From Candidatus Omnitrophota bacterium (GTDB lineage: Bacteria; Omnitrophota; Gorgyraeia; Zapsychrales; Fredricksoniimonadaceae): 64,000 nucleotides of DNA. A program made the position numbers and the translations under genes. Position 1 is the first letter of the stretch. Each line of letters begins with the position of its first letter. Shown in pieces: positions 2,655 to 42,726 of this stretch. Where the stretch lies: NCBI GenBank assembly GCA_015232565.1, contig JADFZK010000006.1:796-64795 (forward strand), given 5' to 3'. The notes beneath the pieces were generated by a model, which had not been told where the DNA came from, made no database searches, and was given only the letters and a program-made list of their open reading frames with translations.

Positions 2655-3812
2655 ATGATACGCAAACGCATCGCCTTGCTGGGTTCCACCGGATCGATCG
2701 GGATCAATACGCTGGAAGTGATCAGTCGTTACCCGGAACGTTTTGAAGTGGTATTGCTTTCAGCGTTCAATAATGTGGAGCTTTTAAAACAGCAGATCCG
2801 TCAATTCTCTCCGGCGAAGGTGGCCCTGGCGGCTGAGCATATTCCGGCCCTGAAAAGTGTTTTTGGCAGTAAGACGGCTTTTTTTGCTGTGGAGAAAGAC
2901 ATTTCTTTCCTTGTCGCAGAGAAGCTGGTGGATATAGTTGTTATTGCGATGAGCGGATCCGCGGCGTTGGAGCCTTTCCTGAGCGCGGTGCGTGCTGGCA
3001 AGGTGGTGGCTCCTGCTAATAAAGAAGCGCTGGTCATTGCGGGGGACATTTTGATGAATGCGGCGCGCCAGTCCGGCGCCAGGGTCATTCCGGTCGATAG
3101 CGAGCAGAGCGCGATCTTTCAATGTATCGAGGGACACCGCCGGGTTGATTTGCGTTGTGTGCATTTGACAGCGTCCGGGGGAGCCTTGTTGCGGGTGCCG
3201 GTTTCCCGGCATCGGAAATTGAGTGTTAAACAGGTTTTAAAACATCCGCGCTGGAAGATGGGCGCCAAGATCACGGTGGATTCGGCGACTTTGCTCAATA
3301 AGGGTTTTGAGGTCATTGAAGCCCAGCGTTTATTCGCGCTGGATATTGACCAGATCAAGGTGGTGATCCATCCGCAGGCCCTGGTACATTCCCTGGTGGA
3401 ATATATCGACGGATCAATGATCGCCCAGCTGGGTGTGCCTGATATGCGGATCCCGATCCAGTATGCGCTCACGTATCCGGAGCGGCTGGATAGCGGGTTC
3501 CCTGGCCTGGATCTGGCGCGGTTAAAGACTTTGTCTTTCGAGCCTCCGGACATGGCAAAGTTCCCGGCTTTGGCCCTGGCTTTCACGGTGGCGCGTTTGG
3601 GCGGCACCTACCCGGCGGTACTTAATGCGGCGGATGAGGTGGCGGTAGAAGCTTTTCTGGCCGGGAGGCTCTCATTTACCGGTATTTATGAGGTTGTGGA
3701 ACGCACCGTCCGGGCACATCGTTTGGCGGGATCTTTATCATTAAAAAGCATCAAAGAGGCTGATGCCTGGGCCCGTGCGGCCGCGCTAGGGTTCTTAAGA
3801 AAGGTAAAATGA
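2655..3812 (+). CDS. dxr: 1-deoxy-D-xylulose 5-phosphate reductoisomerase
   Basis: LLGSTGSIGINTLEVI NADPH-binding N-terminus; 385 aa; synteny. Confidence 0.92.
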   Translation: MIRKRIALLGSTGSIGINTLEVISRYPERFEVVLLSAFNNVELLKQQIRQFSPAKVALAAEHIPALKSVFGSKTAFFAVEKDISFLVAEKLVDIVVIAMSGSAALEPFLSAVRAGKVVAPANKEALVIAGDILMNAARQSGARVIPVDSEQSAIFQCIEGHRRVDLRCVHLTASGGALLRVPVSRHRKLSVKQVLKHPRWKMGAKITVDSATLLNKGFEVIEAQRLFALDIDQIKVVIHPQALVHSLVEYIDGSMIAQLGVPDMRIPIQYALTYPERLDSGFPGLDLARLKTLSFEPPDMAKFPALALAFTVARLGGTYPAVLNAADEVAVEAFLAGRLSFTGIYEVVERTVRAHRLAGSLSLKSIKEADAWARAAALGFLRKVK

Positions 3813-4921
3813 CCATTATTCTGTTTATATTGATCCTGAGTGTGCTTATCGTCGTGCATGAGGCCGGGCATTTTTTTGCTGCCCGCCGGATGGGGGTAAA
3901 AGTTGAGCAGTTTGCACTGGGTTTCGGTCCCAAGCTTTTTTCCTGGGTCTCCGGTGGTACGGAGTATAGCATTTGCGCCATACCTCTTGGCGGCTTTGTC
4001 AAGATGTGCGGTGACGAGCGTTCGCAGTGTAAAGGTAACGGTGATGAATATTTCGCGAAATCCCCTGGTCAGCGTGCCTTGATCGTACTGATGGGGCCGG
4101 TGGTTAATTACGCTTTGGCTTATCTTTGTTTTGTCGGGGTCTTCATGATCGGGAACATCGACCTGGAGGCGACCCAGAAGAATGTGCCGGCAGTGGTGGG
4201 CAAAGTCCTGGCGGGTTCTCCGGCCCAGAAAGCCGGTTTATTGCCTGGCGACCGCGTGGAAGGCGCGGACGGTAAAGTGTTCACGAATTTTTCCGAGATG
4301 CAGGAGTATATTTCCGCGGCCGGGGCTAAACCAGTGCAGGTGTCTTTTTCACGCGGAGGGCAGGCCCAGTCTTTGGTCTTAACTCCTGAACTGCACAAGA
4401 CCAAGGATCTTTTTGGCCGGGAACATCAGGTTAGCCGGATCGGGATCCAGGCTCCGGAGCCTTCCTCGGTGGATAAGCTGGTGGTCAGGAAATACGGTCT
4501 TATCGGTTCGTGGGGCAAGGGCGCCCAGGAGTTGTGGTCGGTGACCGCACGCACTTATGGCGCTTTGTGGGATATGGTTACCGGCCAGCGTTCGGCCAAG
4601 GAAGGGATGACCGGACTGATCGGCATATTCTTCATCATAAAATTTGCGGCCAGTATCGGCGTGTCGTTCCTGTTGCATGTGGTCGGTGTTATCAGCGCCA
4701 GCCTGGCCATATTCAACCTTTTGCCGGTTATCCCGCTGGACGGCGGGCATCTGGCTTTTATTGGCCTGGAAAAATTGCGCGGCCGGGTTTTGTCGGTCAA
4801 AGCCGAGGATATTATTGCCCGGGCGGGTTTTGGGCTGATCATCGCGTTGGCCGTTTTTGTATTCTATCTTGATTTCGAACGGATCGGATTGATCGATAAA
4901 GTTATCAAGCTGTTCCATTAA
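3809..4921 (+). CDS. rseP: RIP metalloprotease (site-2 protease, M50) with PDZ domain
   Basis: HEAGHFFAARRMG (HExxH) in TM1, an internal PDZ-like segment and a C-terminal LLPVIPLDGGH motif. 4-nt overlap with dxr. Confidence 0.9.
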   Translation: MTIILFILILSVLIVVHEAGHFFAARRMGVKVEQFALGFGPKLFSWVSGGTEYSICAIPLGGFVKMCGDERSQCKGNGDEYFAKSPGQRALIVLMGPVVNYALAYLCFVGVFMIGNIDLEATQKNVPAVVGKVLAGSPAQKAGLLPGDRVEGADGKVFTNFSEMQEYISAAGAKPVQVSFSRGGQAQSLVLTPELHKTKDLFGREHQVSRIGIQAPEPSSVDKLVVRKYGLIGSWGKGAQELWSVTARTYGALWDMVTGQRSAKEGMTGLIGIFFIIKFAASIGVSFLLHVVGVISASLAIFNLLPVIPLDGGHLAFIGLEKLRGRVLSVKAEDIIARAGFGLIIALAVFVFYLDFERIGLIDKVIKLFH

Positions 4922-4939: not shown

Positions 4940-6247
4940 GTGCCGGCCAGGGAACCCGAGGAGACGAAAGTGCCAGTACAAACTGAATACGACGATACTA
5001 AAGCCAAACTTCATCGGTATCTGATATCCAAGACTGATTTTATCAAGGTCAAAGATACCCTGAACGATGACCAGATGCGTTTGTATGTGGATGCTGCTAT
5101 TACGGCCTTGTCTCGTGAGAATGATATTATGATCACGCTGGAGGATCGTTTAAAACTGATCCGTGAGATCGCCAGTTCGGTTATGAGCCTGGGTCCCATT
5201 CGGCCTTTGCTGGAAGATAAGGAAGTGACCGAGGTCATGATAAACGGCTATCGGCAGGTTTACGCCCAGAGGTCGGGAAAGATGTTTTTGACCGGGATCA
5301 CTTTCGATGATAATGCGCATCTTATGCATACTATTCAGAAACTTATGGCGGCTTCGGGCACTTCGCGCCGGGTAGATGAGTCGTCTCCTTATGTTGATTT
5401 TTCGCTGAATGATGGCTCACGGGTTAACGTGCTTCTGCCGCCCTGTTCCATGGTGGGACCGGTGGTGACGGTAAGAAAGTTCTCCCGGGATATCTCCACC
5501 GTTGACAATCTGGTTGATCTGGGTACTTTGAGCCGGGCGATGGCTACGTTTTTGATAGCCGCGGTCAAAGCCAAGCTTAATATTGTTTTTTGCGGGGCGA
5601 CCGGTTCCGGAAAGACTACGGTGCTCAATGTGCTCTCCCGGCATATATCCGAGGACGAACGGATCATCACTATTGAAGATACTTCCGAATTGCGCCTTCT
5701 GCAACAGCATGTGGTGGGGTTACAGTCTAAATCAGTGAATATTGAAGGCAAGGGCGCGGTTTCGATCCGCGACCTGTTCATTAATTCCCTGCGTATGCGC
5801 CCGGACCGGATAATTATCGGCGAGGTGCGCGGCGAGGAGATCCTGGATATGATCCAGTCGATCAGTTCCGGCCATTCCGGCACTATGGCTATCGTGCATG
5901 CCGATTCACCCGAGGAATGTTTTAACCGGATGATCACTATGATGCTGATGTCGGGCATTCGTTTAAGCGGCGAGCAGGTGCGCCGCCAGATCGCGACCTC
6001 TATTGAACTTATTGTGTACACCGAGCTTTTTATGGACGGGGTACGCCGGATCGTAAATATTACGGACCTGCGTTTTGACAAGGAAACCGACCGGGTTTCC
6101 CTGGAGGATATTTTCAAGTTTAAACAGGAACATATCGACCCGAATGGCAAGGTGCAGGGGCATTGGGTAATGAACAAGAAATTGCCTTCTTTTGCCGACA
6201 AGTTCGCCAAACGCAATGTGCGTTTGCCGCAAGAGTTTATGCAATAA
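4940..6247 (+). CDS. CpaF/TadA-family secretion ATPase (VirB11-like), orphan
   Basis: Walker A VFCGATGSGKTTVLNVL, ERIITIEDTSEL and RMRPDRIIIGEVRGEE motifs characteristic of TadA/CpaF. No other tad genes are adjacent. Confidence 0.8.
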   Translation: MPAREPEETKVPVQTEYDDTKAKLHRYLISKTDFIKVKDTLNDDQMRLYVDAAITALSRENDIMITLEDRLKLIREIASSVMSLGPIRPLLEDKEVTEVMINGYRQVYAQRSGKMFLTGITFDDNAHLMHTIQKLMAASGTSRRVDESSPYVDFSLNDGSRVNVLLPPCSMVGPVVTVRKFSRDISTVDNLVDLGTLSRAMATFLIAAVKAKLNIVFCGATGSGKTTVLNVLSRHISEDERIITIEDTSELRLLQQHVVGLQSKSVNIEGKGAVSIRDLFINSLRMRPDRIIIGEVRGEEILDMIQSISSGHSGTMAIVHADSPEECFNRMITMMLMSGIRLSGEQVRRQIATSIELIVYTELFMDGVRRIVNITDLRFDKETDRVSLEDIFKFKQEHIDPNGKVQGHWVMNKKLPSFADKFAKRNVRLPQEFMQ

Positions 6248-15590: not shown

Positions 15591-15950
15591 TCAGGCGTGT
15601 TTTCCGGCCAGGGATATAATGGCGTGTGGATCCAGCGGTTTGATCATATACCCCGTAGCGCCCAGTCTTACGGCTTCTATAGCCGTGTTCTCGGAGTTCC
15701 TTTCACCTAAAGCAATAACTGTAATGCCGGCATCGTGTTTACGGATGTCGCTAAACACATTTCCGCCGTTGGAGTCCTGGCTTTCATTCATTCCGATCAG
15801 GGCCAGGGAGGGAGTGTGTTTCTCAATATCGATGGCGGATATATCGGCCGGTGATTCTATTATTATTAGAGGATAGCGGTCAGCCAGCAATTTCTTCAGA
15901 AAACTGCGAGTGTCTGCACTGGTGTCGGCGATAAGGATAGTCTTTGGCAT
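15591..15950 (-). CDS. single-domain response-regulator receiver (atypical/pseudo-receiver)
   Basis: CheY-like fold (ILIAD..., YMIKP conserved Lys). The phospho-acceptor position reads G (LALIGMNE) and the T87-equivalent is G. 1-nt overlap with the upstream XRE gene. Confidence 0.7.
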   Translation of the reverse strand: MPKTILIADTSADTRSFLKKLLADRYPLIIIESPADISAIDIEKHTPSLALIGMNESQDSNGGNVFSDIRKHDAGITVIALGERNSENTAIEAVRLGATGYMIKPLDPHAIISLAGKHA

Positions 15951-16507
15951 TAAAGTGTTACCGGCGTAAGGACGGAAATAAATTTTGCGGTGCTGTTGTG
16001 CGGGTTATCGAAATGATGCGAGAAGGCCGCGTTGAAATATAGTGAAGTGTGAGCGGTAAGTTTAATGTGCTGGTCTTTAATGTGGGCGATCAGACTGCCT
16101 TCCAGCACCCAGATGAAACGTTCCGAACCGGGCTGGAACTTTTCCACGTTGGTGGCGCCTTTACCGTCGATCTTGATCAAAGAAGGCAGCATCCGCTTAT
16201 TTGTCGCCTGACGGGCCAGTATCTCGCGGGAAACCTTTTCGTTAGGGGCCGAGATGGCCTCGATATTTTCCTCCGAGATCACCGGGAGAGAATCGTCTTC
16301 CTGCATCCCCTGATAAAGCTCCGATATGTCCAGCCCCAGCGCCTTGGCGATCATAAAATGCGACTGCAATGTTCCGGTCATCTTGCCGTTCTCGATCCGG
16401 GAGAGAGTGGCGATCTGCACGCCGCTGTCCTGAGAGAGTGCGGTAAGCGAGATCTTTTTCAGCTTGCGCATTTTTTTGATCTGAAGTCCGATATTCATAA
16501 AATTCAA
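15950..16507 (-). CDS. XRE-family HTH transcriptional regulator with C-terminal cupin domain
   Basis: N-terminal HTH_XRE (LTALSQDSGVQIATLSRIENGK) and a C-terminal cupin-like beta region. Confidence 0.75.
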   Translation of the reverse strand: MNFMNIGLQIKKMRKLKKISLTALSQDSGVQIATLSRIENGKMTGTLQSHFMIAKALGLDISELYQGMQEDDSLPVISEENIEAISAPNEKVSREILARQATNKRMLPSLIKIDGKGATNVEKFQPGSERFIWVLEGSLIAHIKDQHIKLTAHTSLYFNAAFSHHFDNPHNSTAKFISVLTPVTL

Positions 16508-16709: not shown

Positions 16710-16979
16710 GTGGACATGTCGTTAGAGTTCAAGGTGGCCAAGATGTTCTGTTTACCGGATGCCGGAAGTTTAAAAGCTTTCGCGGACATTATGGTGAACG
16801 ACGCATTGCTTATTAAGGGCTTGCGGGTTGTGGAAGGTAAGAAAGGGCTTTTTGTTACGATGCCGCGGGAACAGGGCAAAGACAGCAAATGGTACGACCA
16901 GGTGTCTTGCGCGTCGGCAGAGATCTTTGATGATATCGCAACTAAGGTGCTTTCCGAGTATCAGGCGGTAGCGGTTTAA
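16710..16979 (+). CDS. spoVG: septation protein SpoVG
   Basis: KAFADIMVNDALLIKGLRVVEGKKGLFVTMP matches the SpoVG family core; 89 aa; strong RBS. Confidence 0.8.
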   Translation: MDMSLEFKVAKMFCLPDAGSLKAFADIMVNDALLIKGLRVVEGKKGLFVTMPREQGKDSKWYDQVSCASAEIFDDIATKVLSEYQAVAV

Positions 16980-17233: not shown

Positions 17234-17665
17234 ATGAACAATAAAGGTTTCTCTTTGGTCGAGATGGCGATTGCTTTGGGATTAGTGGCGGTCCTGGTAA
17301 GCGTGGTAACAGCGGGTAGCGGAATGATGGTCAAAAGCCGGGTACATCGTGAAACTGCGGCAGTGGATAGTATGCGGATCGCCGCGCAGAATTATTTATC
17401 GGCCAAGAACCTGACTTATACCGGCATCAGCGTGGCCGCGCTTAAGACGGATGGTTTTCTGCCGGCCAATTTTGATCCGGTTAAAAGCAATTCCTTTGGC
17501 GGTGACTATTTGGTGGCCGAGAATGCGGCGGATAATACCAAAGTTGATATTACTCTGGCCGCGGTGCCGGCGGCTGCTGGTGCTGATCTAAGCAATAATT
17601 TCAAAAGTAAAGCGGAACTGCTGGCTTATGACGCCTCTACCAAGGTTTGGAAAGCTACTTTTTAA
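17234..17665 (+). CDS. type IV pilin/pseudopilin with prepilin-type N-terminus
   Basis: MNNKGFSLVEMAIALGLVAVLVSV: a Gly-Phe cleavage site, Glu+5 and a hydrophobic helix. Confidence 0.75.
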   Translation: MNNKGFSLVEMAIALGLVAVLVSVVTAGSGMMVKSRVHRETAAVDSMRIAAQNYLSAKNLTYTGISVAALKTDGFLPANFDPVKSNSFGGDYLVAENAADNTKVDITLAAVPAAAGADLSNNFKSKAELLAYDASTKVWKATF

Positions 17666-18098
17666 CAATAAGGGCGGCTGGCTGGTGGAGCTGGCAGTGG
17701 CTTTGGTGATCGCGGGAATGTTTGTCGGCGGCCTGGCCAGTTTGGCCAAAGTACAGTTGAATGCGGCCCGGGCCAGGCACACTTTGACCACCATGCGATC
17801 AATACTTAAGGCCGGACAGGATTATCGCGTTTTGCATGGAGTATGGCCGGCAGATATTAAGGAAGTTGAAGCGCTTTTAGCATCTTCTGTCGGAAAGAAT
17901 GCCTGGGGCGGACTGTTTTGGCTTTCTCATAGTGAGGGCCTGGCGTGGGTGGAGACCGATGTACCGTCAGGTGTGGCTGTGCCCCAGGGGCCATGGACGG
18001 CGGTTTATGTTTCCGGTATCGGTGCCGGAAGCCGCTGGCGAATGTCCACCCCCTTGTCCTACGGATTTACCGCGAGGCTGGTTTATGAGACGAAATGA
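17628..18098 (+). CDS. pseudopilin-like protein with atypical leader (…NNKG|GWLVELAVALVIAG)
   Basis: There is no start codon between the upstream stop and the pilin-like helix, so it must start at ATG 17628, overlapping the previous gene by 38 nt. Glu+5 is present, but Trp replaces the canonical Phe. Confidence 0.55.
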   Translation: MTPLPRFGKLLFNNKGGWLVELAVALVIAGMFVGGLASLAKVQLNAARARHTLTTMRSILKAGQDYRVLHGVWPADIKEVEALLASSVGKNAWGGLFWLSHSEGLAWVETDVPSGVAVPQGPWTAVYVSGIGAGSRWRMSTPLSYGFTARLVYETK

Positions 18099-18975
18099 CG
18101 GATTTACATTGTTAGAATTGGCGATCGTGCTGGCCGCTACCGCATTAATAGCCGGCGCAGTAGTGCCTTCATTTATAAAGTCAGCTTTTGTCGATGCCGC
18201 ACGGCGAGCCGCTTTGGAGGTGTCTCAGGTCCAGGAAGCCTCCCGGGCGTATTATGTAAAGAAGAAGGCCTGGCCGGTGGATATTGCGGCTTTAAAGATT
18301 GAAGGTTACCTTGATCCAGCCTGGAGTGGAATTAATCCTTTTGGTAAGCCATACATTCTGGAGCAATCGGGCGAAGTGATGCTGGTCAAGACCGAAGTGA
18401 AGAATGAGGTTGCCGGTGTTTTGCTGGGCACATTGCCTATGTCGGCTCTGAATGCGGGAAGTGTAGTTTCAGGCGTGACTGTTCCCGGTATTGATACGGC
18501 CAATTTACCGGTGGGGGCGGTTATGGCCTGGCCGGTAATGGATATTCCGGCAGGCTGGTTGGTTTGCGACGGCCGGCGGGTTGACCGGCGTGAACATGCC
18601 GAGTTGTTTGCTTTGCTGGGAGTGAATTATGGCGCGGGCGATGGTGCGACTACATTTAATATCCCGGACTTGAGGGGCCGGGCGGTGGTAGGGCTGGACA
18701 ATATGGGTGGTAGTGTGGCCAATGTCATTATGGGTTCCTGGGCCAGGAAGATCGGTGAGAAGTGGGGTGAAGAGACGCATGTTTTGACCACTATGGAAAT
18801 GCCTTCCCATACGCATCCGTATCTGGAAACTCCCTGGCAGGGCGGCCGTTACGATGGCCATTCTTCGCCAGTAATGACGGGTCAGCAATGGTCCACAACA
18901 TTTCCGGCCGGCGGCGGCAAGGCCCACAATAATATTCAACCGTCCATTGCTTTGAACTGGATCATTAAAGGATGA
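18085..18975 (+). CDS. prepilin N-terminus fused to a phage tail-collar (microcystin-dependent protein, MDP) domain
   Basis: Internal ATG 18085 gives MRRNDGFTLLELAIVLAA (canonical prepilin motif); the track ORF start at 17899 is an upstream extension. The C-terminus carries tail-collar motifs: PAGWLVCDGR, LFALLGVNYGAGDG, TTFNIPDLRGRAVVG, HTHPY, GGGKAHNNIQPS. Confidence 0.7.
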   Translation: MRRNDGFTLLELAIVLAATALIAGAVVPSFIKSAFVDAARRAALEVSQVQEASRAYYVKKKAWPVDIAALKIEGYLDPAWSGINPFGKPYILEQSGEVMLVKTEVKNEVAGVLLGTLPMSALNAGSVVSGVTVPGIDTANLPVGAVMAWPVMDIPAGWLVCDGRRVDRREHAELFALLGVNYGAGDGATTFNIPDLRGRAVVGLDNMGGSVANVIMGSWARKIGEKWGEETHVLTTMEMPSHTHPYLETPWQGGRYDGHSSPVMTGQQWSTTFPAGGGKAHNNIQPSIALNWIIKG

Positions 18976-19880
18976 AGCCGTTCAAGAATATTTCAGCCCT
19001 GATCTTATTGTTGGTAAGCAGTGCTTTTCCATTTGCCGCTCGGTCCGAAAGTTTGGCGGTACTGACCGGGAGGGCCGACTGGAATTGTGTGCGCTTGGAG
19101 CTTACCGGCCAGGCCTGCAGCCGGGTAGCCCCGCCCTATGCGGGCGTAATGATGCGTTATTGGCAACCGGTCTTAATGGTGGAAACGGTCAAGAGGCCGG
19201 GCGACACCGCGGTTAATGAATACCGTTCCTTGCTGGGAGAACCGTTAAAACAAATGGCGGCAACGGCCATGGGGGCGGGGAGCGCGAATATGGACAGCGG
19301 ATCGGGGTACTCGGCAGATACCACGGCGGTGCAAATGAGTGATGTGCATGTGATGGGGTTTCCGGCTTCCAGCATATTTTCGGCGATCATTGAACCGGTT
19401 TGCGAAGGCTCTCCCGAACTGTCGAGCTCAGTCAGTTATCTTAGTGAAAGAGATGCCGTGGAATGGCGGACGCTCAAGAATGAATCCCGGCATCCAATGT
19501 CTTTGCTGTCCGCGGCTATGGCTCCGATGTGCGAGGGCGGACAGATAACTACTCCGGGGATGTGCATTGGGGTTTGGGGGCCTTTGTATCCTCGAGGCGG
19601 TTTTATTGCCGGTTATAGCCCGGTTGTGGGTTCGGCGGCTTTGGCTTACCGGGGTGTGGATATAGCCTCGATCAACCCTTTATCGGTTTTTCATAGCCGG
19701 GTAATGCCTTTGCTTTTTGTTCCGGATCCTTTCTGGGACAGAATGCAGATGGTTTATCCGCAAGCTTCCCGGTGCCTGAAGATCGGGGAGGATCCCCGTA
19801 CCTGGGAACAGGATCGGGTTTCAGCAGACGGGAAATATGTATGGATATACTGGCGCAAAAAAGAATGCTGTGCGTTGTGA
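18972..19880 (+). CDS. Cys/Trp-rich secreted protein, possibly of the TraU family (F-type pilus assembly)
   Basis: Signal peptide MKPFKNISALILLLVSSAFPFAA; about 10 Cys and many Trp. The C-terminal motifs MCIGVWGPLYPRGG and YVWIYWRKKECC resemble my recollection of TraU-family conserved blocks. That assignment is from memory only. Confidence 0.5.
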   Translation: MKPFKNISALILLLVSSAFPFAARSESLAVLTGRADWNCVRLELTGQACSRVAPPYAGVMMRYWQPVLMVETVKRPGDTAVNEYRSLLGEPLKQMAATAMGAGSANMDSGSGYSADTTAVQMSDVHVMGFPASSIFSAIIEPVCEGSPELSSSVSYLSERDAVEWRTLKNESRHPMSLLSAAMAPMCEGGQITTPGMCIGVWGPLYPRGGFIAGYSPVVGSAALAYRGVDIASINPLSVFHSRVMPLLFVPDPFWDRMQMVYPQASRCLKIGEDPRTWEQDRVSADGKYVWIYWRKKECCAL

Positions 19881-20227
19881 TATTGGCGGGTCTGGGGCTG
19901 GCGGGCAACCTGGCGAGTGCCGATGACTCGGCAAGAAAATACGGCCTTTCGGCACTGGATTATTTTAGCCGGGTGAAGTTACAAGATGCAGGACGGGCGG
20001 AATTTTTGGCTGATGAACTGTGGGGTGAGGCAAGTCGTTTGCCGGGAGGATCAGTTGAGGTCCATTACCCGCCTGGCCCGGTATTGGATTTTTTACAAAC
20101 GCCCAATGCTGAAACCGGGCGGCGCTATTTACGCTGGAACGAGCTTCGGCTGGAGAAGATCCAAAAGGCCCAGGAAGTGTTGAACAAAATGATCGAGGAT
20201 CCACCTGGTGCGGCGGACGTTCATTAG
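19841..20227 (+). CDS. small secreted hypothetical protein
   Basis: An internal ATG gives MDILAQKRMLCVVILAGLGLAGNLASA, a signal peptide. The ORF overlaps the upstream gene's end. The start is uncertain; ATG 19865 is an alternative. Confidence 0.5.
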   Translation: MDILAQKRMLCVVILAGLGLAGNLASADDSARKYGLSALDYFSRVKLQDAGRAEFLADELWGEASRLPGGSVEVHYPPGPVLDFLQTPNAETGRRYLRWNELRLEKIQKAQEVLNKMIEDPPGAADVH

Positions 20228-20256
20228 AAACCATGATAAACCAGAAAGGTATTTTT

Positions 20257-20694
20257 ATGTTCAAACGATTAATGTTGGTTTTAATCTGTACGATCTTGTG
20301 CGCGTCGATAACCCGGGCCGAGGATGGTACGGACGAGCTGGTGCGGTTACGCCGGCAAGCCCAGGATGAACGCCGTAAAGAAGAACAGATCCAGATGATG
20401 CGGCTGGAACTGGAGAAGCTGAAGCTGGAGGTGGAGACTCGCAAGACCATGGTTGAAATGGGTATGGCCGGGGCGGTGTCTTCACCGAGCGGAGTAGCCA
20501 ATATCACCGTTGAAGTAAAGAATATAGTAGTCAGTCCGGAAGGCGCCAGCGCCGTACTGGAAGTTGGCGGCAGCAGGCAAATGGTTAAAGCGGGAGATGC
20601 GGCTGGCCCGTATACAGTCAAAAGCATCACTGCAAACGAAGTGGTTTTGGTTGATGCCAAGGGCGGGGAGCTGAGGAGCACTTTGCGTATATGA
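20257..20694 (+). CDS. secreted coiled-coil protein (PilP/GspC-like accessory?)
   Basis: MFKRLMLVLICTILCASITRA signal peptide, preceded by AGAAAGG. A charged coiled-coil segment followed by a beta-rich C-terminus. The track start is 20233. Confidence 0.5.
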   Translation: MFKRLMLVLICTILCASITRAEDGTDELVRLRRQAQDERRKEEQIQMMRLELEKLKLEVETRKTMVEMGMAGAVSSPSGVANITVEVKNIVVSPEGASAVLEVGGSRQMVKAGDAAGPYTVKSITANEVVLVDAKGGELRSTLRI

Positions 20695-22238
20695 GCCATT
20701 TACGCTTAGGAGGCCTGTTGTTGGCCGCGGATATCGTTACCCGGAGCGAAGTGGATTTTGCCGCCGCGATACAAGCGGCCAGTGTCCGATCCGACAAGAT
20801 CGGGGCTATTCTGGTGGATCAAGGTTTGCTAAGCCGCGACAGCCTGGCCCGCACCTTGGCCGAACAGGCGGGTTGGGAATTCTTTGGCGGCCAGTACCTG
20901 CCCGACCAGGAAGCGGCCGAGAAGATCGGCCTGGCTTTCATTAAAGAGCATTGGGTCTTCCCGTTAAAAGTCACCGAGGGCTATGGTTTTGTATTTTCCG
21001 ATGGCGATAATACCCGGGCTACCGACCGGTTGCTTGGTTGTTTTGGCAGTGCGGTGCGGTTCTTTGTGGGTGAGGAAGCTTGTATTAAAGACGCTATTGC
21101 CGCGCTGGAACGGCGCCCGGGCGGGGACATTGCCGGTGGACTGACGGATATTAAGCATTTACTGGATGAGGCGGCGGCTAACGGCGCCACCGACATTCAT
21201 ATTGAACCGGCTGATGCGACTGTAAATGTGCGTTTAAGGATCGATGGTGTTCTGCATTTTTATCGGGCCTATCCACGCACGGAACTGGCCAGAATAGTTA
21301 ATATGGCCTTTAATCGTGCGGGCCTAAGCGCCGGGGATGTCCTGCGGTTTCATGACGCTCGTTTCGAGGAAGAATGCGCCGGGCGCAAGCTGGATATCCG
21401 GCTTTCGCATTTGCCATCGGCCAATGGTTCATCGCTGGTCCTGCGGATTCTGGATAAATCCCGCAGCGCGGTACCGCTGGCCGAGCTGGGCTATTCGGAT
21501 CTGAATCAGCGCCAGCTGGTTAAGGCTATCCGACGGCCGCATGGGCTGGTACTTTTCACCGGACCGACGGGTTGCGGCAAGACTACCAGCCTGTATTCAC
21601 TTTTAAGCGGCTTAAAAGGGCTGGGTATAAAGGTGGTTACCGCGGAAGATCCGGTAGAGGTGCGGGTGCCTCTGGTGACCCAGGTCCCGGTTGACTTGCG
21701 GCGCGAACAGGATTTTCATCATATTACCCGGGCTTTATTAAGGCACGACCCCGATGTGGTACTGATCGGCGAGATCCGTGACGAGAAGACTGCCCGGGAA
21801 GCATTACGCGCGGCAGTGACCGGGCACCGGGTGCTGGCGACTTTGCACACCAATGATGTAATGGGCGCGATCTTGCGTTTGCGTGACCTGGGGATCGATC
21901 ATGCGTATATCAGTCATGCGTTGACTTGTATTGTGGCCCAAAGGCTGGTGCGGAAATTGTGCCCGGAATGTAAGGAATTCGCCGGCCCCGGTGAGGGGTT
22001 TGTCCATCACGAGCCGGGTTGTCCGGCGTGTTTAGGTGGTTATAGAGGCCGCACAGTTGCGGCCGAGGTAATGTATGTGGATGACGCTATGCGGTTTCTT
22101 ATCGAGCAGGGTCTTATCCAGGAGGTGGCAGTAAAATATCAACAGGATCCCGGCAGGCTAAGCATGCGGGCTGATGCCGAGCGCCTGGTACGGGAAGGCC
22201 TGGTAAGTAAACTGGAGATCGAAAGGGTATTCGGATGA
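20691..22238 (+). CDS. GspE/PilB-family secretion ATPase (set 1)
   Basis: T2SSE N-terminal domain, Walker A FTGPTGCGKTTSLYSLL, GEIRDEKTA, and a tetracysteine CPEC...CPAC motif. Confidence 0.9.
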   Translation: MSHLRLGGLLLAADIVTRSEVDFAAAIQAASVRSDKIGAILVDQGLLSRDSLARTLAEQAGWEFFGGQYLPDQEAAEKIGLAFIKEHWVFPLKVTEGYGFVFSDGDNTRATDRLLGCFGSAVRFFVGEEACIKDAIAALERRPGGDIAGGLTDIKHLLDEAAANGATDIHIEPADATVNVRLRIDGVLHFYRAYPRTELARIVNMAFNRAGLSAGDVLRFHDARFEEECAGRKLDIRLSHLPSANGSSLVLRILDKSRSAVPLAELGYSDLNQRQLVKAIRRPHGLVLFTGPTGCGKTTSLYSLLSGLKGLGIKVVTAEDPVEVRVPLVTQVPVDLRREQDFHHITRALLRHDPDVVLIGEIRDEKTAREALRAAVTGHRVLATLHTNDVMGAILRLRDLGIDHAYISHALTCIVAQRLVRKLCPECKEFAGPGEGFVHHEPGCPACLGGYRGRTVAAEVMYVDDAMRFLIEQGLIQEVAVKYQQDPGRLSMRADAERLVREGLVSKLEIERVFG

Positions 22239-23260
22239 ACGACCGCGCGCTGGCAATATTTTTCCGGGATATGGCTAATATGCTGATTTCAGGTATCGGC
22301 CTGGAACATTCATTAAGGACCTTAAGTGAAACGGCCATGCAGGAGGGGGCGCGTCGTATGTGCGCCGGGGCTTTGGCAAGATTACAGGGTGGTGTTTCCC
22401 TTTCTGACGCCCTCGCGGCTTCGGGGGTTCTGCCGCGGGAAGCCTTAATGTCAATATCTGCCGGTGAGACCGCCGGTGAGTTGCCCGACGTGTTCAATAT
22501 GTTAGGAAATTATTTTGAACTTAAAGCCGCAATGCGCCAAAAAGCGCTTTCAGCTCTGGGTTATCCGGTCCTGGTAATGGTCATTATGCTGGGAGTCTTG
22601 TTATATATGGTGGTTGAGGTCCTGCCTAAAGTGGCGGTGCTTTTGCCGTCCGGTGCTTTTGACTCTCCGGTGACCAGTGCACTGGTGGCGGCGGCCTGGT
22701 TCCTGAAGTCCTGGGGATTGTTGACCGGCGGTTTGCTGGCTTTGGGCGTGGGTGCGTTACTAATGCTGGCACGTTATAAAATGGCGGAATTGCGAATTAT
22801 GATCTCCCGGATCCCTTTTTTGAGTCAACTGGTAAAAGAACAGGAATTGGCTTTGGGTTTTTTTGCCTTGTTCGTTCTGCAGAAAAGCGGAGTAAACCTG
22901 GAAAGGGCTTTACGCGAGGCGGCAGAGGTGGCGGGGGGCGCGACCCGACAGCATTTGCGGGATTGTTCTGCTTATTTGGTCGGTGGGCTGGCACTATCCG
23001 AAGCGGTACGCCAGGACCGGTATTTTCCGCGCTTCACCGCCGATACTTTGCGTATCGGGGAGGAGTCCGGGCGTTTTGCGGAGTACTTTGAGCGTTTATT
23101 CCAGGTTTTTTACCGGATGTTCCAGTCCAGAATGAGCTGTTTGGCCGGAGCGGTGCGGCCGGTCATGCTGGCAGTCTGCGGCGCATTCATAGCGCTAATT
23201 GCCGTCGGTTTCTTACAGCCTTTGTATGGCAACCTTACGGGTATTGCCGCGCCGCAGTGA
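22235..23260 (+). CDS. GspF/PilC-family inner-membrane platform protein (set 1, short form)
   Basis: T2SSF-type repeats and TM segments; 4-nt overlap with the ATPase gene; 341 aa. Confidence 0.8.
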   Translation: MNDRALAIFFRDMANMLISGIGLEHSLRTLSETAMQEGARRMCAGALARLQGGVSLSDALAASGVLPREALMSISAGETAGELPDVFNMLGNYFELKAAMRQKALSALGYPVLVMVIMLGVLLYMVVEVLPKVAVLLPSGAFDSPVTSALVAAAWFLKSWGLLTGGLLALGVGALLMLARYKMAELRIMISRIPFLSQLVKEQELALGFFALFVLQKSGVNLERALREAAEVAGGATRQHLRDCSAYLVGGLALSEAVRQDRYFPRFTADTLRIGEESGRFAEYFERLFQVFYRMFQSRMSCLAGAVRPVMLAVCGAFIALIAVGFLQPLYGNLTGIAAPQ

Positions 23261-39068: not shown

Positions 39069-40802
39069 ATGGCACGTCTTCGTTTGGGAGAGCGGTTGAT
39101 CAAGCAGGGCCTTATAACCGAGGCCCAACTGCAGGAAGCTCTTGACGACCAGAAGAAAGACAAGCTCCCGGTGGGGGAGATACTGGTTAACAAAGGCTAT
39201 CTTAAAGAGGAGGACCTGGCCGCGGCCATTGGTTCCCAGCTTTTGATCCCGTATGCTTCGCGTGCTTCCGGGATGCTTAACCCTCAGCGCCAGCAGAACC
39301 TGGAAAAAATAATTCCCTACGAGTTCGCCAAAGAGCACCTGGTTTTGCCGCTTAACCATAATATGAATTCGCTCACCTGCGGCATTTTTAATCCTTTCGA
39401 TCTAATAATGATCGACAACCTTAAAAAGATCACCGGTTGCGAAATTAACTTCGTGATCGCCACGCGTACCGACCTGCTGAAATCCATCCTGGAATTCTAT
39501 GGCAATATTTCCGGCGATTCCAAGGCTGGCGGCAGTGTGCTGTGGGGCGAGGCCTTACAGCGTTCACGCGATATGTCGCCGGCGAGCAGTGTAATTGTAA
39601 CTGACGATGCCAGCGAAGCCGAGTTGAGCCTGGACAAGGTTATCGCCAAGGCCGAGGAAGCGCCGGTCATCAAGCTGGTAGACCTTATCATCCGCCAGGC
39701 GATCGACGAGCGGGCCAGCGATATCCATATTGAGCCTTTCAAGGAAAAAGTGGAAGTGCGTTACCGCATAGACGGCGAGTTGTACCAGATCCCTCCGCCG
39801 GCCAAGCATTTGCATTTGCCCATTGTTTCGCGTATCAAAATTTTGGCCAAGCTCGATATTGCCGAAAAACGCTTGCCGCAAGACGGGCGCATTTCGGCCA
39901 AACTGGAAGACCGCACGGTAGACTTGCGTGTTTCGTCCTTGCCCACGGTGTGGGGCGAGAAGATCGTAATGCGTATTCTGGACAGCGACGCTATCAAGCT
40001 TCAGCTGGCCACGCTGGGTTTCGAGCCCAGTCAGCTGGAGATAATCCGTAAAGGCCTCAAGGTGCCTTACGGCCTGCTTTTTGTTACCGGGCCGACTGGC
40101 AGTGGTAAATCTACTACTCTTTATTCGGCTTTAACCGAGGTGCTGGACCCCACCAAGAACATTATGACCGCCGAAGACCCGGTGGAGTTTCGTATAGAAG
40201 GGGTTAACCAGGTGCAGGTGCGGCCCGACATCGGGTTTACTTTTGCCGAAGCTTTGCGCTCTTTCCTGCGCCAGGACCCGGATATTATAATGGTCGGCGA
40301 GGTGCGCGATATCGAAACCGCCCAAATTTGCACCCGCGCCGCGCTTACCGGCCACTTTGTGTTAAGCACTTTGCATACCAATGACGCCGCTTCGGCCATT
40401 ACCCGTTTGCTAGACATGGGTATACCCAGTTACCTGTTAACGCCTTCCTTAACCATGATAATCGCCCAGCGTTTGGGCCGCAAACTGTGCCCGCTGTGCA
40501 AGGAGCCTTACGAACCCAAGGTGGAGGACCTCGGCGATGTAAAGCTTAAGGCCGACCTGATCTACCGGGCCAAGGGTTGTGACAAATGTTCCCATACCGG
40601 CTATAAAGGCCGGCTGGTAATTGCCGAAGTCCTGTTGATAGACGACGAGATCCGCCGTATTATTGGTAACAATGGCACTTATACTGAACTGCGCGACGCT
40701 TCGCGCAAGAACGGCATGATGACCCTGTTTGAAGCCGGCTTGCGTAAAGTTGAAGCGGGGATTACCAGTTTGGAAGAGATCTTCGGAGTGACCGCGGGGT
40801 AA
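39069..40802 (+). CDS. pilB: type IV pilus assembly ATPase PilB/GspE (set 2)
   Basis: T2SSE_N domain, Walker A VTGPTGSGKSTTLYSAL, GEVRDIETA, and CPLC…CDKC tetracysteine. Confidence 0.9.
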   Translation: MARLRLGERLIKQGLITEAQLQEALDDQKKDKLPVGEILVNKGYLKEEDLAAAIGSQLLIPYASRASGMLNPQRQQNLEKIIPYEFAKEHLVLPLNHNMNSLTCGIFNPFDLIMIDNLKKITGCEINFVIATRTDLLKSILEFYGNISGDSKAGGSVLWGEALQRSRDMSPASSVIVTDDASEAELSLDKVIAKAEEAPVIKLVDLIIRQAIDERASDIHIEPFKEKVEVRYRIDGELYQIPPPAKHLHLPIVSRIKILAKLDIAEKRLPQDGRISAKLEDRTVDLRVSSLPTVWGEKIVMRILDSDAIKLQLATLGFEPSQLEIIRKGLKVPYGLLFVTGPTGSGKSTTLYSALTEVLDPTKNIMTAEDPVEFRIEGVNQVQVRPDIGFTFAEALRSFLRQDPDIIMVGEVRDIETAQICTRAALTGHFVLSTLHTNDAASAITRLLDMGIPSYLLTPSLTMIIAQRLGRKLCPLCKEPYEPKVEDLGDVKLKADLIYRAKGCDKCSHTGYKGRLVIAEVLLIDDEIRRIIGNNGTYTELRDASRKNGMMTLFEAGLRKVEAGITSLEEIFGVTAG

Positions 40803-40805
40803 TTT

Positions 40806-42038
40806 ATGCCAAAATTCTTTATTACATTCAAAGATAAAACCGGCAAGAACAAAACCTCCCTGGTTGACGACCGCGACAGCAATTCGGCGGTGGCGGGTGT
40901 GCAGGCGCAGGGTTTTTATGTTATCGCCGTGCAACCTATGGAAGAAGCCGTGCCCAATGCGCCGGTTTCCGCGGCGGCCCTGCAGAACCGCAAGTTCACG
41001 CACAACAATGTGCGCCTGATGGACATTGTGGTGTTCGCCCGTCAGCTGGCTACCATGCTGGAATCCGGGGTGCCGCTGTTAAGGAGCCTTACGGTTATTT
41101 TAGACCAGCTGGAAAGCCGTCAGCTGGCGATGGTGGTGGCGCAAGTGCGCGCCGATATCGAGCAGGGCCTGGCTTTCAGCAAAGCGCTGGAAAAACACCC
41201 CAAGGTTTTCAGTCAATTTTGGGTGAGCCTGGTTGAAGTGGGCGAGGCTTCGGGCACCATGCCCAAAGTGCTTAAGAAGCTCACCGAGTACGCCGAGGAA
41301 AGTGTAAAATTCCAGTCCCAGCTGGTGGGGGCAATGATCTATCCCGGTGTTCTGCTATTTATCGTGACCCTGGCGGTGCTGGCTTTTGCCTTGTTCGTAG
41401 GGCCTATTTTCGAGAAGGTCTTTATGGACATGAAGATGGAACTGCCCGGGATCACTTCGTTTATGATGGGCTTGTTCAAGTTTATCCAGACCAAGTTCCT
41501 TTTTATAATAATGGGTATCACGGGTTTTGTTTTTGCTTTCAAAGCTTATGCTGCAACGGCGGGTGGCCGCTGGCAGATCGAGATGTTGCTTTATAACGTG
41601 CCCACGCTGGGCAATATTATCCGCCTGATCGTGGTGGAGAAGTTCACCTCCCAGATGGCTATTCTTATAGAAAGCGGCGTGCCCATTCTTTACGCGCTGG
41701 AGATCTCGGAGCGTTTGGTCGACAATATGGTTTGTGCCGCGGTGTTAAAAGATGTGCGCGAAGATGTGCGCGAAGGCAAACTGCTGGCCGATTCGCTGGA
41801 GAAAAGCACATTTTTTCCGTCGATGGCAGTGCAAATGATCCGCGTAGGCGAGGAAACCGGCGAGCTTTCCAAAATGCTGGGGCACGTTTCGGTGTTCTAT
41901 AAAGAACAGGTGCAGGAATTCATGAAGAATATCTCGGTGCTGATAGAGCCCGTGATGCTGGTAGTAATGGGCGGCGTAATAGGCACCATGGTGGTGGCGA
42001 TGTTCCTGCCGCTATTGTCTATCTCTACCGGCGGTTGA
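40806..42038 (+). CDS. pilC: type IV pilus platform protein PilC/GspF (set 2)
   Basis: Two T2SSF repeats; 410 aa. Confidence 0.85.
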   Translation: MPKFFITFKDKTGKNKTSLVDDRDSNSAVAGVQAQGFYVIAVQPMEEAVPNAPVSAAALQNRKFTHNNVRLMDIVVFARQLATMLESGVPLLRSLTVILDQLESRQLAMVVAQVRADIEQGLAFSKALEKHPKVFSQFWVSLVEVGEASGTMPKVLKKLTEYAEESVKFQSQLVGAMIYPGVLLFIVTLAVLAFALFVGPIFEKVFMDMKMELPGITSFMMGLFKFIQTKFLFIIMGITGFVFAFKAYAATAGGRWQIEMLLYNVPTLGNIIRLIVVEKFTSQMAILIESGVPILYALEISERLVDNMVCAAVLKDVREDVREGKLLADSLEKSTFFPSMAVQMIRVGEETGELSKMLGHVSVFYKEQVQEFMKNISVLIEPVMLVVMGGVIGTMVVAMFLPLLSISTGG

Positions 42039-42669: not shown

Positions 42670-42685
42670 TTTAAACAGTTAGAAA

Positions 42686-42722
42686 GGAAGGCGGCTTGCA
42701 CTCAGGGCGCCTTCCTTTTTTC
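42686..42722 (+). terminator. rho-independent terminator after the major pilin gene
   Basis: GGAAGGCG-loop-CGCCTTCC followed by TTTTTTC. Confidence 0.65.
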
Positions 42723-42726
42723 TTCT

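Follow-up and report, generated by a model that had tools for sequence, protein, structure and literature searches.

A type IV pilus operon of Omnitrophota with a collar-domain pilin and a TraU-like protein, a probable relocated part of an F-type T4SS locus

It is rather likely that the operon described here encodes one half, with the filament, adhesin and motor, of an accessory type IV pilus system and has been relocated; the pilus would be specific to Omnitrophota and would belong to an F-type (TraA/L/E/K/B/V/C/U) T4SS. The operon lies at positions 17234-23260 of the window, by which we mean the whole stretch of 64,000 nucleotides analysed (contig JADFZK010000006.1 of a Candidatus Omnitrophota bacterium), and we refer to it as set 1.

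Genes of the set-1 operon

Set 1 is a single operon of eight plus-strand ORFs whose ends overlap or abut, in the order pilin, pseudopilin, collar-pilin, TraU-like protein, small secreted protein, PilP-like protein, GspE (515 aa) and GspF (341 aa). The identical eight genes, the odd accessory genes included, recur in unchanged order in six or more further species-level genomes, and the grouping is not a chance one. The window contains two GspE and GspF sets, at 20691-23260 and 39069-42038, as the initial annotation had claimed. Set 2 is a canonical pilMNOPQ-BC cluster (34.6-44.8 kb), distinct from set 1, with PilM (at 34623), the secretin PilQ (at 37624), PilB (at 39069, 577 aa, with MshEN motifs), PilC (at 40806, 410 aa) and five prepilins (42217-44805). 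A third T2SSE-family ATPase, TadA/VirB11-like, is found at 4940-6247. In the tree, the set-1-type GspE proteins form an Omnitrophota clade of their own (98% bootstrap) and set 2 groups with HofB/GspE, which bears out the earlier view of set 1 as a second, non-canonical type IV filament module. An ATPase, a platform and class III prepilins are all present, and by their sequences the operon is assigned to the type IV filament superfamily.

The first gene (17234-17665, plus strand) encodes a prepilin of 143 aa (N_methyl PF07963, E=8e-6; TIGR02532, E=5e-5) with a short leader of 5 residues and Glu at +5 (MNNKG/FSLVEM), which is likely to be the major pilin. It is the most conserved protein of the module (57-78% identity to its orthologues, dN/dS 0.07), and its gene is preceded at 5 nt by an RBS-like GAGGG. 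The match to PilS_N (PF08805) is weak (E=5e-4, 20.5 bits, under the cut-off of 22); the pilin of the related locus L004 reaches 24.6 bits against the same cut-off. The second gene (17628-18098, plus strand, 156 aa as the ORF is drawn) encodes a minor pseudopilin with a degenerate class III motif, NNKG/GWLVE. The W-for-F helix start that had been ascribed to it is a register error: with Glu kept at +5, the W falls at +2. Within this family position +1 is degenerate throughout and -1 is often Ala. The N-terminus matches GspG weakly (TIGR01710, E=6e-4), the family profile resembles GspG and plasmid prepilins (hhalign, 95-96% probability), and orthologues occupy the same position in about 19 loci.

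The third gene (18085-18975, plus strand) joins a minor pilin to a phage tail-collar domain in a protein of 296 aa, so that three genes of the operon carry the class III signal with E+5. The fusion is genuine, as had been proposed: Collar PF07484 matches residues 143-199 (E=4.9e-21, 74.9 bits against a cut-off of 24), and the N-terminus has the leader MRRNDG/FTLLEL (N_methyl, E=1e-4) and a further weak match to GspG. AF2 predicts for residues 1-135 the fold of a type IV pilin (pLDDT 80-95), and type IV pilins are the top Foldseek matches of the model; the collar half is poorly modelled as a monomer (pLDDT <50). In comparison with phage tail-fibre collar proteins (PF07484; COG4675, 'microcystin-dependent protein'), residues ~140-296 are a typical collar module that shares 40-50% identity with collar proteins occurring on their own in bacteria and phages, and its HxH (H241, H243) and NIQP motifs are invariant in 26 homologues. 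Unlike in the stand-alone proteins, the collar is here joined to a cleavable type IV pilin N-terminal domain, and this architecture of ~300 aa is seen in only about 12 of the best 150 library matches. A separate class of prepilins, 560-960 aa long, carries several collar repeats. The collar fold is used by the tail fibres of phages for binding cell-surface glycans, and we regard the collar-pilin as a putative tip adhesin.

The next gene (18972-19880, plus strand) encodes a TraU-like protein of 302 aa with a signal peptide and conserved cysteines. This assignment also stood: TraU PF06834 matches with E=9e-29 and 101 bits (cut-off 26.5) over model positions 41-305 of 306, and TIGR03756 with E=5e-17, under the model cut-off. 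The AF2 model (pLDDT 79, pTM 0.81) gave no fold match in the PDB, and the protein is predicted to be periplasmic. The gene is directly 3' of the collar-pilin gene in all three layouts described below. It is followed by the gene of a small secreted protein (19841-20227, plus strand, 128 aa, signal peptide), which has no Pfam or NCBIfam match; F42, W61, P88, Y96, W99 and A110 are common to 17 orthologues. The gene of the small protein starts 40 nt within the stop region of traU, and the same 40-nt overlap is present in L001, L003, L005 and L006; judging from the gene arrangement, the protein is translationally coupled to TraU. Conservation marks the collar-pilin, TraU and the small protein as core parts, not misannotations.

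The initial annotation had listed two small secreted proteins. Both do have signal peptides, but the second (20233-20694, plus strand, 153 aa) is PilP/GspC-HR-like, with a coiled coil and a C-terminal beta domain. It matches TIGR03021 pilP_fam with E=3e-6 (28 bits, below the cut-off of 34.65), the beta domain of the family profile gives weak PDB matches to GspC (7oio, E=0.3) and PilP (4av2, E=1.6), and the protein is orthologous to the one immediately upstream of GspE in the contiguous loci. The statement that set 1 lacks PilMNOP and a secretin holds apart from this PilP-like protein: no secretin, PilM/N/O or prepilin peptidase is found inside or adjoining set 1. A prepilin peptidase (PilD/A24 family) is likewise not found among the scanned ORFs of the window. 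In one relative, L020, a weakly A24-like ORF lies upstream of GspE.

The assembly ATPase of the GspE/PilB type (20691-22238, plus strand, 515 aa; T2SSE, E=3.6e-96) has intact catalytic motifs, with Walker A at residue 291, a tetracysteine motif at 424 and a Walker B-like motif. Its N-terminus contains two MshEN-type c-di-GMP-binding motifs (residues 5-28 and 36-59; MshE-related NF053729, E=5e-9). The GspF/PilC-type inner-membrane platform (22235-23260, plus strand, 341 aa; T2SSF, two domains, E=2e-40) is without the first ~60 residues of canonical GspF, its residues 2-330 aligning to positions 61-394 of TIGR02120. It is as short as had been noted but not exceptionally so, since the family ranges from 337 to 405 aa and IncI PilR has 365 aa. 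It is 57-67% identical to orthologues of the window's layout; L005, the most divergent, has 47%.

Contiguous and split layouts

In Ca. Velamenicoccus archaeovorus (complete genome) and at least six other genomes, which are basal Omnitrophota, the module forms part of an F-type T4SS array. The order is TraL-E-K-B-V-TraC, p98, secretin, p385, p171, PilP-like, GspE, GspF, pilin, pseudopilin, collar-pilin, TraU, small protein and p413, with a TraA-like pilin heading the array before TraL, and the pilus block lies between traC and p413 (a gene of ~413 aa). The eight window genes are orthologous to this block, with 29-67% identity (tblastn). TraC, p385, p171 and p413 have no tblastn match in the window, and TraA, TraL, TraE, TraK, TraB, TraV, TraC, TraG and a coupling protein, which adjoin the module in relatives, are not found there. 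The T4SS of the relatives has its own TraA/VirB2-like pilin, and that of Velamenicoccus also a coupling protein, TraG_N and a MobC-like protein; the TraC of the relatives scores 386 bits with TIGR02746, under the cut-off of 567. No family or fold match was obtained for the small protein, p385, p171 or p413, and no family match for p98. Toxin-antitoxin genes and a serine recombinase flank the T4SS-associated loci in places. The initial annotation had missed this connection of set 1 to a conjugation-type, F-type array, which explains why TraU is present in the operon.

In the clade of the window the eight-gene block is circularly permuted with respect to the contiguous order and occupies one constant chromosomal site, between spoVG and glnB-amtB. 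The window's layout is monophyletic and nested in the tree, with the contiguous Velamenicoccus basal. A complementary locus, L030/L031, has the T4SS, TraC, p98, the secretin, p385 and p171-like and p413-like genes and is without exactly the eight genes; the p171-like and p413-like genes are only 21 bp apart. It lies on a separate contig and shares its ENA sample and its SRA run with the window-type loci L001 and L002, with a coverage of 11.9 against 11.1 and a GC content of 46% against 47%. The shared sample, coverage, GC content and exact complementarity suggest that L001 and L030 are from one genome. In a third layout the secretin, p385, p171 and the PilP-like gene stay with the T4SS, and GspE, GspF, the pilins, TraU, the small protein and p413 lie ~18 kb away on the same contig. 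As to the window itself, its TraU is MBF0386646, and a TraC that is 75% identical to that of L030, MBF0387720, follows 1074 accession numbers later; this proximity of accession numbers, which is suggestive only, points to TraC as probably coming from the window's own MAG.

It had been proposed that set 1 either borrows the set-2 secretin or does not cross the outer membrane. The homologous loci, which have a dedicated secretin and two accessory proteins directly upstream, do not support this, nor does the window-layout relative, whose missing genes are on another contig of the same sample with matching coverage. On the view that the operon has been moved away from the rest of a larger machine, the seemingly missing outer-membrane pore most likely has its gene at another site of the genome, rather than being absent. 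The sole secretin-like sequence of the window, the set-2 PilQ, is 25% identical to the set-1-type secretins. The initial annotation had also allowed that the set-1 genes might be ordinary Com/T2SS paralogs with partners elsewhere; partners do exist elsewhere in a relative of the same layout, but ordinary paralogs the genes are not.

A different reading, which we consider unlikely, is that of a domesticated adhesion pilus, independent of the T4SS since its move to the core chromosome (the T4SS being perhaps lost), that uses the set-2 PilQ or no secretin and displays the collar adhesin, by which the cell would attach to a host or a prey. The fixed housekeeping site spoVG ... glnB-amtB, which the operon occupies in every genome of the window's layout, would suit it, as would the purifying selection described below, the complete T4aP system with secretin 14 kb away and the putative status of the T4SS locus in the window's MAG. 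Cell-cell attachment is moreover thought to be necessary to Omnitrophota (PMC10066038). Against this, a relative of the same layout keeps an exactly complementary T4SS-secretin-p385-p171-p413 locus, a TraC exists that is probably from the window's MAG, the set-2 secretin has the low identity given above, and the retention of TraU and a PilP-like secretin adaptor is hard to explain without partners.

The derivation from a T4SS-associated locus, with its toxin-antitoxin genes and serine recombinase in places, and the local absence of several partner genes might also indicate a decaying, now functionless remnant of a mobile element. This we find highly improbable, as all eight ORFs have stayed intact in seven genomes or more, which span 33-78% amino-acid identity, the catalytic motifs are preserved, and the gene overlaps conserved across the operons of relatives imply translational coupling. 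In all eight genes non-synonymous differences are far below synonymous ones (pN 0.12-0.35, pS 0.69-0.78); the synonymous sites have reached saturation, and the six genes with a computable dS give dN/dS values of 0.07-0.19 when compared with the closest relative. By these ratios the operon is under purifying selection.

Relation to known systems

The closest analogues of the operon are thin type IV pili, those of IncI plasmids and of PAPI-1, by which recipient cells are bound in conjugation. The IncI1/IncI2 thin pilus (R64, TP114: pilM-N-O-P-Q-R-S-T-U-V) is a type IVb pilus accessory to a conjugative T4SS, and the Omnitrophota pilus is similarly encoded with a conjugation-type T4SS. The contiguous loci (secretin, ~400-aa protein, ~150-aa PilP-like protein, ATPase of ~520 aa, short GspF of 341-384 aa against 365 aa in IncI, pilin, minor-pilin adhesin) resemble the IncI order pilN-O-P-Q-R-S...V; this order next to a T4SS is found in the contiguous relatives, whereas the window is permuted and has no adjacent T4SS. 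Further likenesses are the weak PilS_N matches of the pilin and the lack of a PilT-type ATPase gene in either locus (the IncI pil locus was retrieved). On the other hand, the partner T4SS is F-type (TraL/E/K/B/V/C/U) and not I-type, and the ATPase domain is 27-28% identical to IncI PilQ, PilQ and PilR being distant outgroups in the trees. The leaders are short (5-6 residues), unlike the long leader of PilS, the adhesin carries a tail-collar domain of the phage type where IncI has shufflon-switched PilV tails, the pilus block includes TraU and its small partner, and the window's clade splits the system over two loci. PilO, PilM and PilP gave no hhalign match among the accessory proteins of the module.

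The conjugative type IVb pilus of PAPI-1 and ICEclc-type elements (pilL2-pilM2 cluster, MPF_G T4SS) belongs to a T4SS family with a TraU-like TIGR03756 protein, and the best plasmid matches of the window's TraU are annotated as being of this type, though with only ~24% identity. There, unlike in the window, the TraU-like gene is in the T4SS cluster, the pilus genes are contiguous with their own secretin, and a collar-pilin is absent. TraU of the F plasmid is a periplasmic MPF_F protein required for DNA transfer and pilus function. The window's protein shares with it a near-full-length Pfam domain, the signal peptide and conserved cysteines, and in the contiguous loci it is likewise downstream of traC; in contrast to F, nine type IV pilus genes are inserted between traC and TraU, and TraU remains beside the pilus genes in the split layouts. 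None of the F partners TraW, TrbC, TraN, TraF and TraH is recognisable among the small protein, p413, p385, p171 and p98. Tandem MshEN motifs in GspE recall MSHA/MshE, but such motifs are widespread and occur in the set-2 PilB as well. The secretin of the contiguous loci has MshL as its best model (203 bits, below the cut-off of 250), and no set of MshI/J/K/M/N or MshB/C/D/O/P/Q was recognised. As far as the sequences tell, the operon differs from its closest analogues in being embedded in an F-type T4SS, in the placement of TraU with pilus genes, in the collar domain of the adhesin and in its split layout.

The ATPase scores slightly better as GspE (NCBIfam, 320 bits) than as PilB (305 bits), and its ATPase domain is 41% identical to an E. 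coli plasmid GspE. Together with the weakly GspG-like N-termini of the pseudopilin and collar-pilin, the resemblance of the PilP-like protein to the GspC HR domain and the operon's lack of a retraction ATPase (PilT-type), this may be taken to suggest a T2SS-like pseudopilus, in which a short piston in the periplasm would push out a substrate, perhaps one related to the T4SS, with no surface filament. We give little credence to this reading. T2SS models yielded only sub-threshold N-terminal GspG/GspH matches and none for GspC/L/M/I/J/K, nor was a GspH-K set found; moreover, the PilB score is nearly equal, a receptor-binding collar on a pilin favours an exposed tip, the gene order follows that of conjugative thin-pilus loci, and the IncI pil locus also lacks a PilT-type gene. 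We note that some observations count against the accessory pilus of an F-type T4SS that we favour: the ATPase is nearer to the GspE of T2SS than to the PilQ of conjugative pili, the accessory proteins show no recognisable IncI character, and the window contains no detected prepilin peptidase.

Proposed mode of action

In the accessory pilus that we favour, the three prepilins would be cleaved by an unlinked prepilin peptidase, and the 143-aa pilin would be polymerised by the GspF platform and a c-di-GMP-responsive GspE ATPase, with the pseudopilin and the collar-pilin as minor subunits at the tip. The PilP-like protein may bridge the inner-membrane platform to the dedicated secretin, encoded beside the T4SS elsewhere in the genome, and to its partners p385 and p171. 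TraU and its translationally coupled small partner could provide a periplasmic coupling of the pilus to the T4SS. The collar domain would attach to a partner cell, a host or a prey and keep it near for T4SS-mediated transfer, a role similar to that of PilV on IncI and PAPI-1 thin pili. Thin-pilus adhesins select recipients via LPS (PMC9045228, PMC5297154): in IncI the adhesin is a minor pilin whose C-terminal part binds the receptor (PMC9045228), and PAPI-1 is an integrative element whose T4SS is combined with a type IV pilus that recognises LPS on the recipient surface (PMC5297154).

A more far-reaching and rather doubtful proposition is that the pilus and F-type T4SS genes make up one chimeric envelope machine, in which a collar-tipped pilus is physically coupled via TraU and the small partner to the T4SS channel for seizing cells and delivering DNA or proteins, the two halves being interdependent even though they are scattered. 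If this is true, ultra-small host-dependent or predatory Omnitrophota would use the machine on other cells, and not for ordinary plasmid conjugation.

The set-1 operon and its surroundings

The initial annotation had reported two GspE+GspF sets in this stretch, the first without a secretin, and this observation was confirmed. Set 1 (17234-23260, forward strand) consists of eight ORFs with overlapping or abutting ends, which fits a single operon. The first three genes encode a 143-aa prepilin (17234-17665; motif MNNKG/FSLVEM; N_methyl E=8e-6, PilS_N weak), a 156-aa pseudopilin (17628-18098) and a 296-aa prepilin whose C-terminal half is a phage tail-collar domain (18085-18975; PF07484, E=4.9e-21), hereafter the collar-pilin. 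They are followed by a TraU-family protein (18972-19880; PF06834, E=9e-29, 101 bits; TIGR03756, E=5e-17), a small secreted protein of 128 aa without family match (19841-20227), a secreted PilP-like protein of 153 aa (20233-20694; TIGR03021 PilP family, weak, E=3e-6), a 515-aa GspE/PilB-type ATPase (20691-22238; T2SSE, E=3.6e-96) and a 341-aa GspF with two T2SSF domains (22235-23260). The window comes from a Candidatus Omnitrophota MAG, and its TraU protein is NCBI entry MBF0386646.1, on a 79.5-kb contig. Set 2 (34.6-44.8 kb) is a conventional T4aP-like cluster comprising PilM, two small proteins, a secretin of 478 aa, PilB (577 aa), PilC (410 aa) and five prepilins.

The set-1 ATPase carries two MshEN-type c-di-GMP motifs (residues 5-28 and 36-59; NF053729, E=5e-9), a Walker A motif (residue 291) and the tetracysteine motif known from assembly ATPases. 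Two features that had been considered unusual turned out to be ordinary or misread. The length of GspF lies within the range of its family (337-405 aa; IncI PilR has 365 aa), and the tryptophan at the helix start of the pseudopilin resulted from a register error: with Glu at +5 the motif reads KG/GWLVE, i.e. the tryptophan is at +2 and not at +1. In the pseudopilin family the residue at +1 varies, and Ala is frequent at -1. The family profile of the PilP-like protein gave weak matches over the beta domain to GspC (7oio) and PilP (4av2).

A stand-alone response regulator, an HTH/cupin regulator and spoVG directly adjoin set 1 on its upstream side (15591-16507, reverse strand; 16710-16979, forward strand). 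This arrangement is kept in all relatives that share the layout of the window, and the three genes could be candidate regulators of set 1. No Rfam family was found in the whole window, and the promoter/terminator scan gave no signal above shuffled sequences.

Two other regions deserve mention. A third T2SSE-family ATPase (4940-6247, forward strand; 435 aa) is TadA/CpaF/VirB11-like (TIGR03819 275 bits, which is below the cut-off; VirB11 199 bits). Its gene stands alone: the neighbours encode an RseP-type M50 protease and a class II tRNA synthetase, and the vicinity has no partner genes of a pilus or T4SS. Immediately 3' of the set-2 cluster, the region at about 45500-58400 has a GC content of 37-45% as compared to about 52% elsewhere. 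TPR proteins, an acyltransferase (Acyl_transf_3) and a glycosyltransferase (PMT_2) are encoded there, along with several ORFs of 450-630 aa that have no family match. The region may have been acquired horizontally, as a surface-glycan or envelope island.

Gene layouts and phylogeny

In the homologue search, TraU-like proteins of this kind were found on Omnitrophota-type contigs only. The gene contexts of the relatives' loci were inspected and then mapped by tblastn, which revealed three layouts. The contiguous layout (Form B) was found in Ca. Velamenicoccus archaeovorus, whose genome is complete (CP019384), and in at least six other genomes. It begins with p412, a TraA/VirB2-like pilin, TraL, TraE, TraK, TraB, TraV, TraC, p98, a secretin, p385 and p171, and continues with the PilP-like protein, GspE, GspF, pilin, pseudopilin, collar-pilin, TraU, the small protein and p413 (p-numbers denote accessory proteins without family names). 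In other words, the pilus genes lie inside an F-type T4SS array, between traC and traU. Velamenicoccus has, in addition, TraG_N, a coupling protein and a MobC/Replic_Relax protein upstream. In the same genome the collar-pilin gene and traU are separated by an insertion on the opposite strand that encodes a TacA-type antitoxin and a GNAT acetyltransferase toxin (locus L008, 21646-22516), and PhdYeFM/PIN toxin-antitoxin pairs border the loci L004 and L025.

The second layout (Form C) is split, and both of its parts, the loci L025 and L020, are on one contig. The T4SS genes through the PilP-like gene are kept together, and GspE through p413 follow about 18 kb downstream, past housekeeping genes. 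Just upstream of the GspE gene, L020 contains an ORF of 321 aa (3657-4622) with a weak Peptidase_A24 match (E=4e-5, below the cut-off).

The third layout (Form A), also split, is that of the window, and was seen in L001, L002, L005, L009, L010, L011 and the P0003 contigs. Here the eight genes are located between spoVG and glnB-amtB in the order pilin, pseudopilin, collar-pilin, TraU, small protein, PilP-like protein, GspE, GspF, so that the contiguous block appears circularly permuted. All eight set-1 genes have orthologues in this block (29-67% identity, tblastn). Conversely, tblastn found no match to TraC, p385, p171 or p413 in the window, and the only match to the relatives' secretin was the set-2 PilQ, at 25% identity.

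Neighbour-joining trees of GspE and GspF were calculated with four outside references, i.e. PilQ/R of an IncI-gamma/K1 plasmid, GspE/F of an E. coli plasmid, K-12 HofB/C and the ATPase/F pair of plasmid pQBR57. The earlier question of whether set 1 has a clade of its own was answered positively: the set-1-type ATPases formed a single clade with 98% bootstrap support, separate from the set-2 ATPase, which grouped with HofB and GspE. Within the clade the layout of the window was monophyletic (78%) and nested, and Velamenicoccus was basal, so the contiguous layout is the ancestral one. The IncI proteins were distant in both trees.

In a small neighbour-joining tree the pilus ATPase of the Pseudomonas plasmid pQBR57 (L028, 63.4-73.1 kb) joined the Omnitrophota set-1 clade with 100% bootstrap support. 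Its pilus locus contains a secretin, three small proteins, the ATPase, a prepilin, GspF and two further prepilins, and adjoins a T4SS coupling-protein gene. This locus may be a proteobacterial relative of the T4SS-associated pilus kind.

Set 1 is under purifying selection. In the comparison with L009, its closest relative, pS is saturated at 0.69-0.78 while pN is 0.12-0.35, non-synonymous differences are far below synonymous ones in all eight genes, and dN/dS is 0.07-0.19 in the six genes where dS was computable.

The complementary T4SS-secretin locus

The complement was reached through MBF0387720.1, a TraC protein on a contig of 40,758 bp whose accession number is 1074 beyond that of the window's TraU and which is a candidate TraC of the window's own MAG. 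The TraC sequences of the contiguous loci were compared for nearness to this entry. A homologue, P0045, encoded on the contigs L030 and L031, is 75% identical to it. The gene order on these contigs is p409 (another unnamed accessory protein), a TraA-like pilin, TraL-E-K-B-V-TraC, a p98-like protein, a secretin (53% identity to the secretin of L006), p385, and p171-like and p413-like proteins with a gap of 21 bp between the latter two. L030/L031 lack all eight of the window-type genes. L030 and the window-type contig L001 come from the same ENA assembly (ERZ4200879), with similar values of coverage (11.9 vs 11.1) and GC content (46.2% vs 47.4%); L031 and L002 come from the same SRA run.

The T4SS-secretin locus and the window-type locus are exact complements. 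This and Form C, with both parts on a single contig, show that the system survives splitting with both halves retained. We infer that the window's own MAG also has the complementary locus. The initial interpretation is supported in part: set 1 is a distinct, non-canonical module, but judging by the relatives' complementary locus, the system very probably has a secretin elsewhere in the genome. Downstream of the T4SS-secretin-p413 genes, L030 (14253-19025) encodes an FRG-domain protein, a large serine recombinase and a DUF2924 protein, which hints that the T4SS half is on an integrative element and the pilus half in the core chromosome.

Relation to known systems and proposed function

Set 1 belongs to the type IV filament superfamily. 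Its closer classification was considered against three known types. The IncI-type T4bP failed on the ATPase/platform clade, the long leader, and the PilO and PilM features, and the ATPase domain is 41% identical to plasmid GspE versus 27-28% to IncI PilQ. In hhalign comparisons of the p385, p171, PilP-like, p98, small-protein and p413 profiles with IncI PilM/O/P and the pQBR57 accessory proteins no match exceeded 50% probability, therefore the system was not filed as an IncI-type T4bP. A type II secretion system was rejected as GspC/L/M/H-K were not found, and support for MSHA was limited to the MshEN motif and a sub-threshold MshL-like secretin. The relatives' T4SS around the module is F-like, but TraW, TrbC, TraN, TraF and TraH were not recognisable. 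As a working analogy for set 1 we use the thin pilus of IncI plasmids and PAPI-1, whose PilV adhesins choose recipients via LPS (PMC9045228, PMC5297154, PMC10654706).

In the AlphaFold model of the collar-pilin, residues 1-135 form a confident pilin fold, and the top Foldseek matches are type IV pilins. The C-terminal collar half is modelled poorly as a monomer. Phage fibre tips fold as an intertwined trimer, and a poor monomer model would be expected if the collar folds in the same way. The HxH and NIQP motifs show no variation. There are few full-length homologues that carry a prepilin motif, and these are Omnitrophota-like; about 12 of the best 150 matches in a search of 1.84 billion representatives have the ~300-aa architecture. 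Another class consists of metagenomic proteins of 560-960 aa that carry several tail-collar repeats behind a canonical GFT(I/L)VEL prepilin N-terminus (P0294, P0296, P0299, P0300, P0304, P0317, P0318, P0320, P0347, P0353, P0359, P0360 and P0400), so pilin-collar fusions also occur outside the Omnitrophota ~300-aa family. The terms 'tail collar' and 'minor pilin' occurred together in no paper in our literature search.

The assignment of the set-1 TraU to PF06834 is firm. Its AlphaFold model (pLDDT 79, pTM 0.81) had no significant match among the solved structures of the PDB. In the window (19841-19880) and in L001, L003, L005 and L006, the small-protein gene starts within traU, overlapping its 3' end by 40 nt; in L004 the overlap is 22 nt. 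This conserved overlap suggests coupled translation and a stoichiometric partnership of the two proteins. When 17 small-protein orthologues and 34 accessory proteins were scanned against Pfam and NCBIfam, the matches were spurious, except for the TraA/VirB2-like pilin and a MobC-like protein; for the 17 orthologues, the scans lent no support to the idea of a similarity between the small protein and the TraF N-terminus. A Thermovibrio MPF_F plasmid also encodes TraU, with no pilus genes nearby.

The gene families, the orthology, the three layouts, the complementary locus and the purifying selection are directly supported by the data; what follows is the mechanism that we consider most likely. 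The three prepilins would be processed by a peptidase encoded elsewhere. GspF and the putatively c-di-GMP-sensitive GspE would polymerise the 143-aa pilin, and the pseudopilin and the collar-pilin would prime or tip the filament. The PilP-like protein would link to a dedicated secretin-p385-p171 sub-complex encoded next to the T4SS, and the collar domain may bind a surface glycan on another cell. TraU and its partner would join the pilus to the F-type T4SS, which would carry out the transfer.

Accessory type IV pili that serve conjugative T4SSs are already known as a kind of system. The new aspects are that the pilus genes are embedded in an F-type array, that TraU and its small partner behave as genes of the pilus block, that the adhesin is a phage tail-collar domain, and that the system tolerates a split into complementary halves. 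Genomic surveys of Omnitrophota credited the phylum with T4aP and Tad pili (PMC10066038). The Omnitrophota papers we searched describe T4aP, Tad and T2SS-like loci and no T4SS-embedded pilus, and we note that absence from these papers is no proof.

Omnitrophota are abundant uncultured nanobacteria, thought to be attached to or to prey on other cells. If our reading is true, a phylum-wide conserved T4SS and pilus with a phage-derived adhesin would be a prime candidate for partner recognition and macromolecule exchange or injection. For annotation it would mean that, where a pilus operon in a fragmented MAG seems 'secretin-less', it may simply be one half of a split system. Moreover, the fact that TraU segregates with the pilus genes and not with the T4SS would give a testable handle on the long-unclear role of the TraU family.
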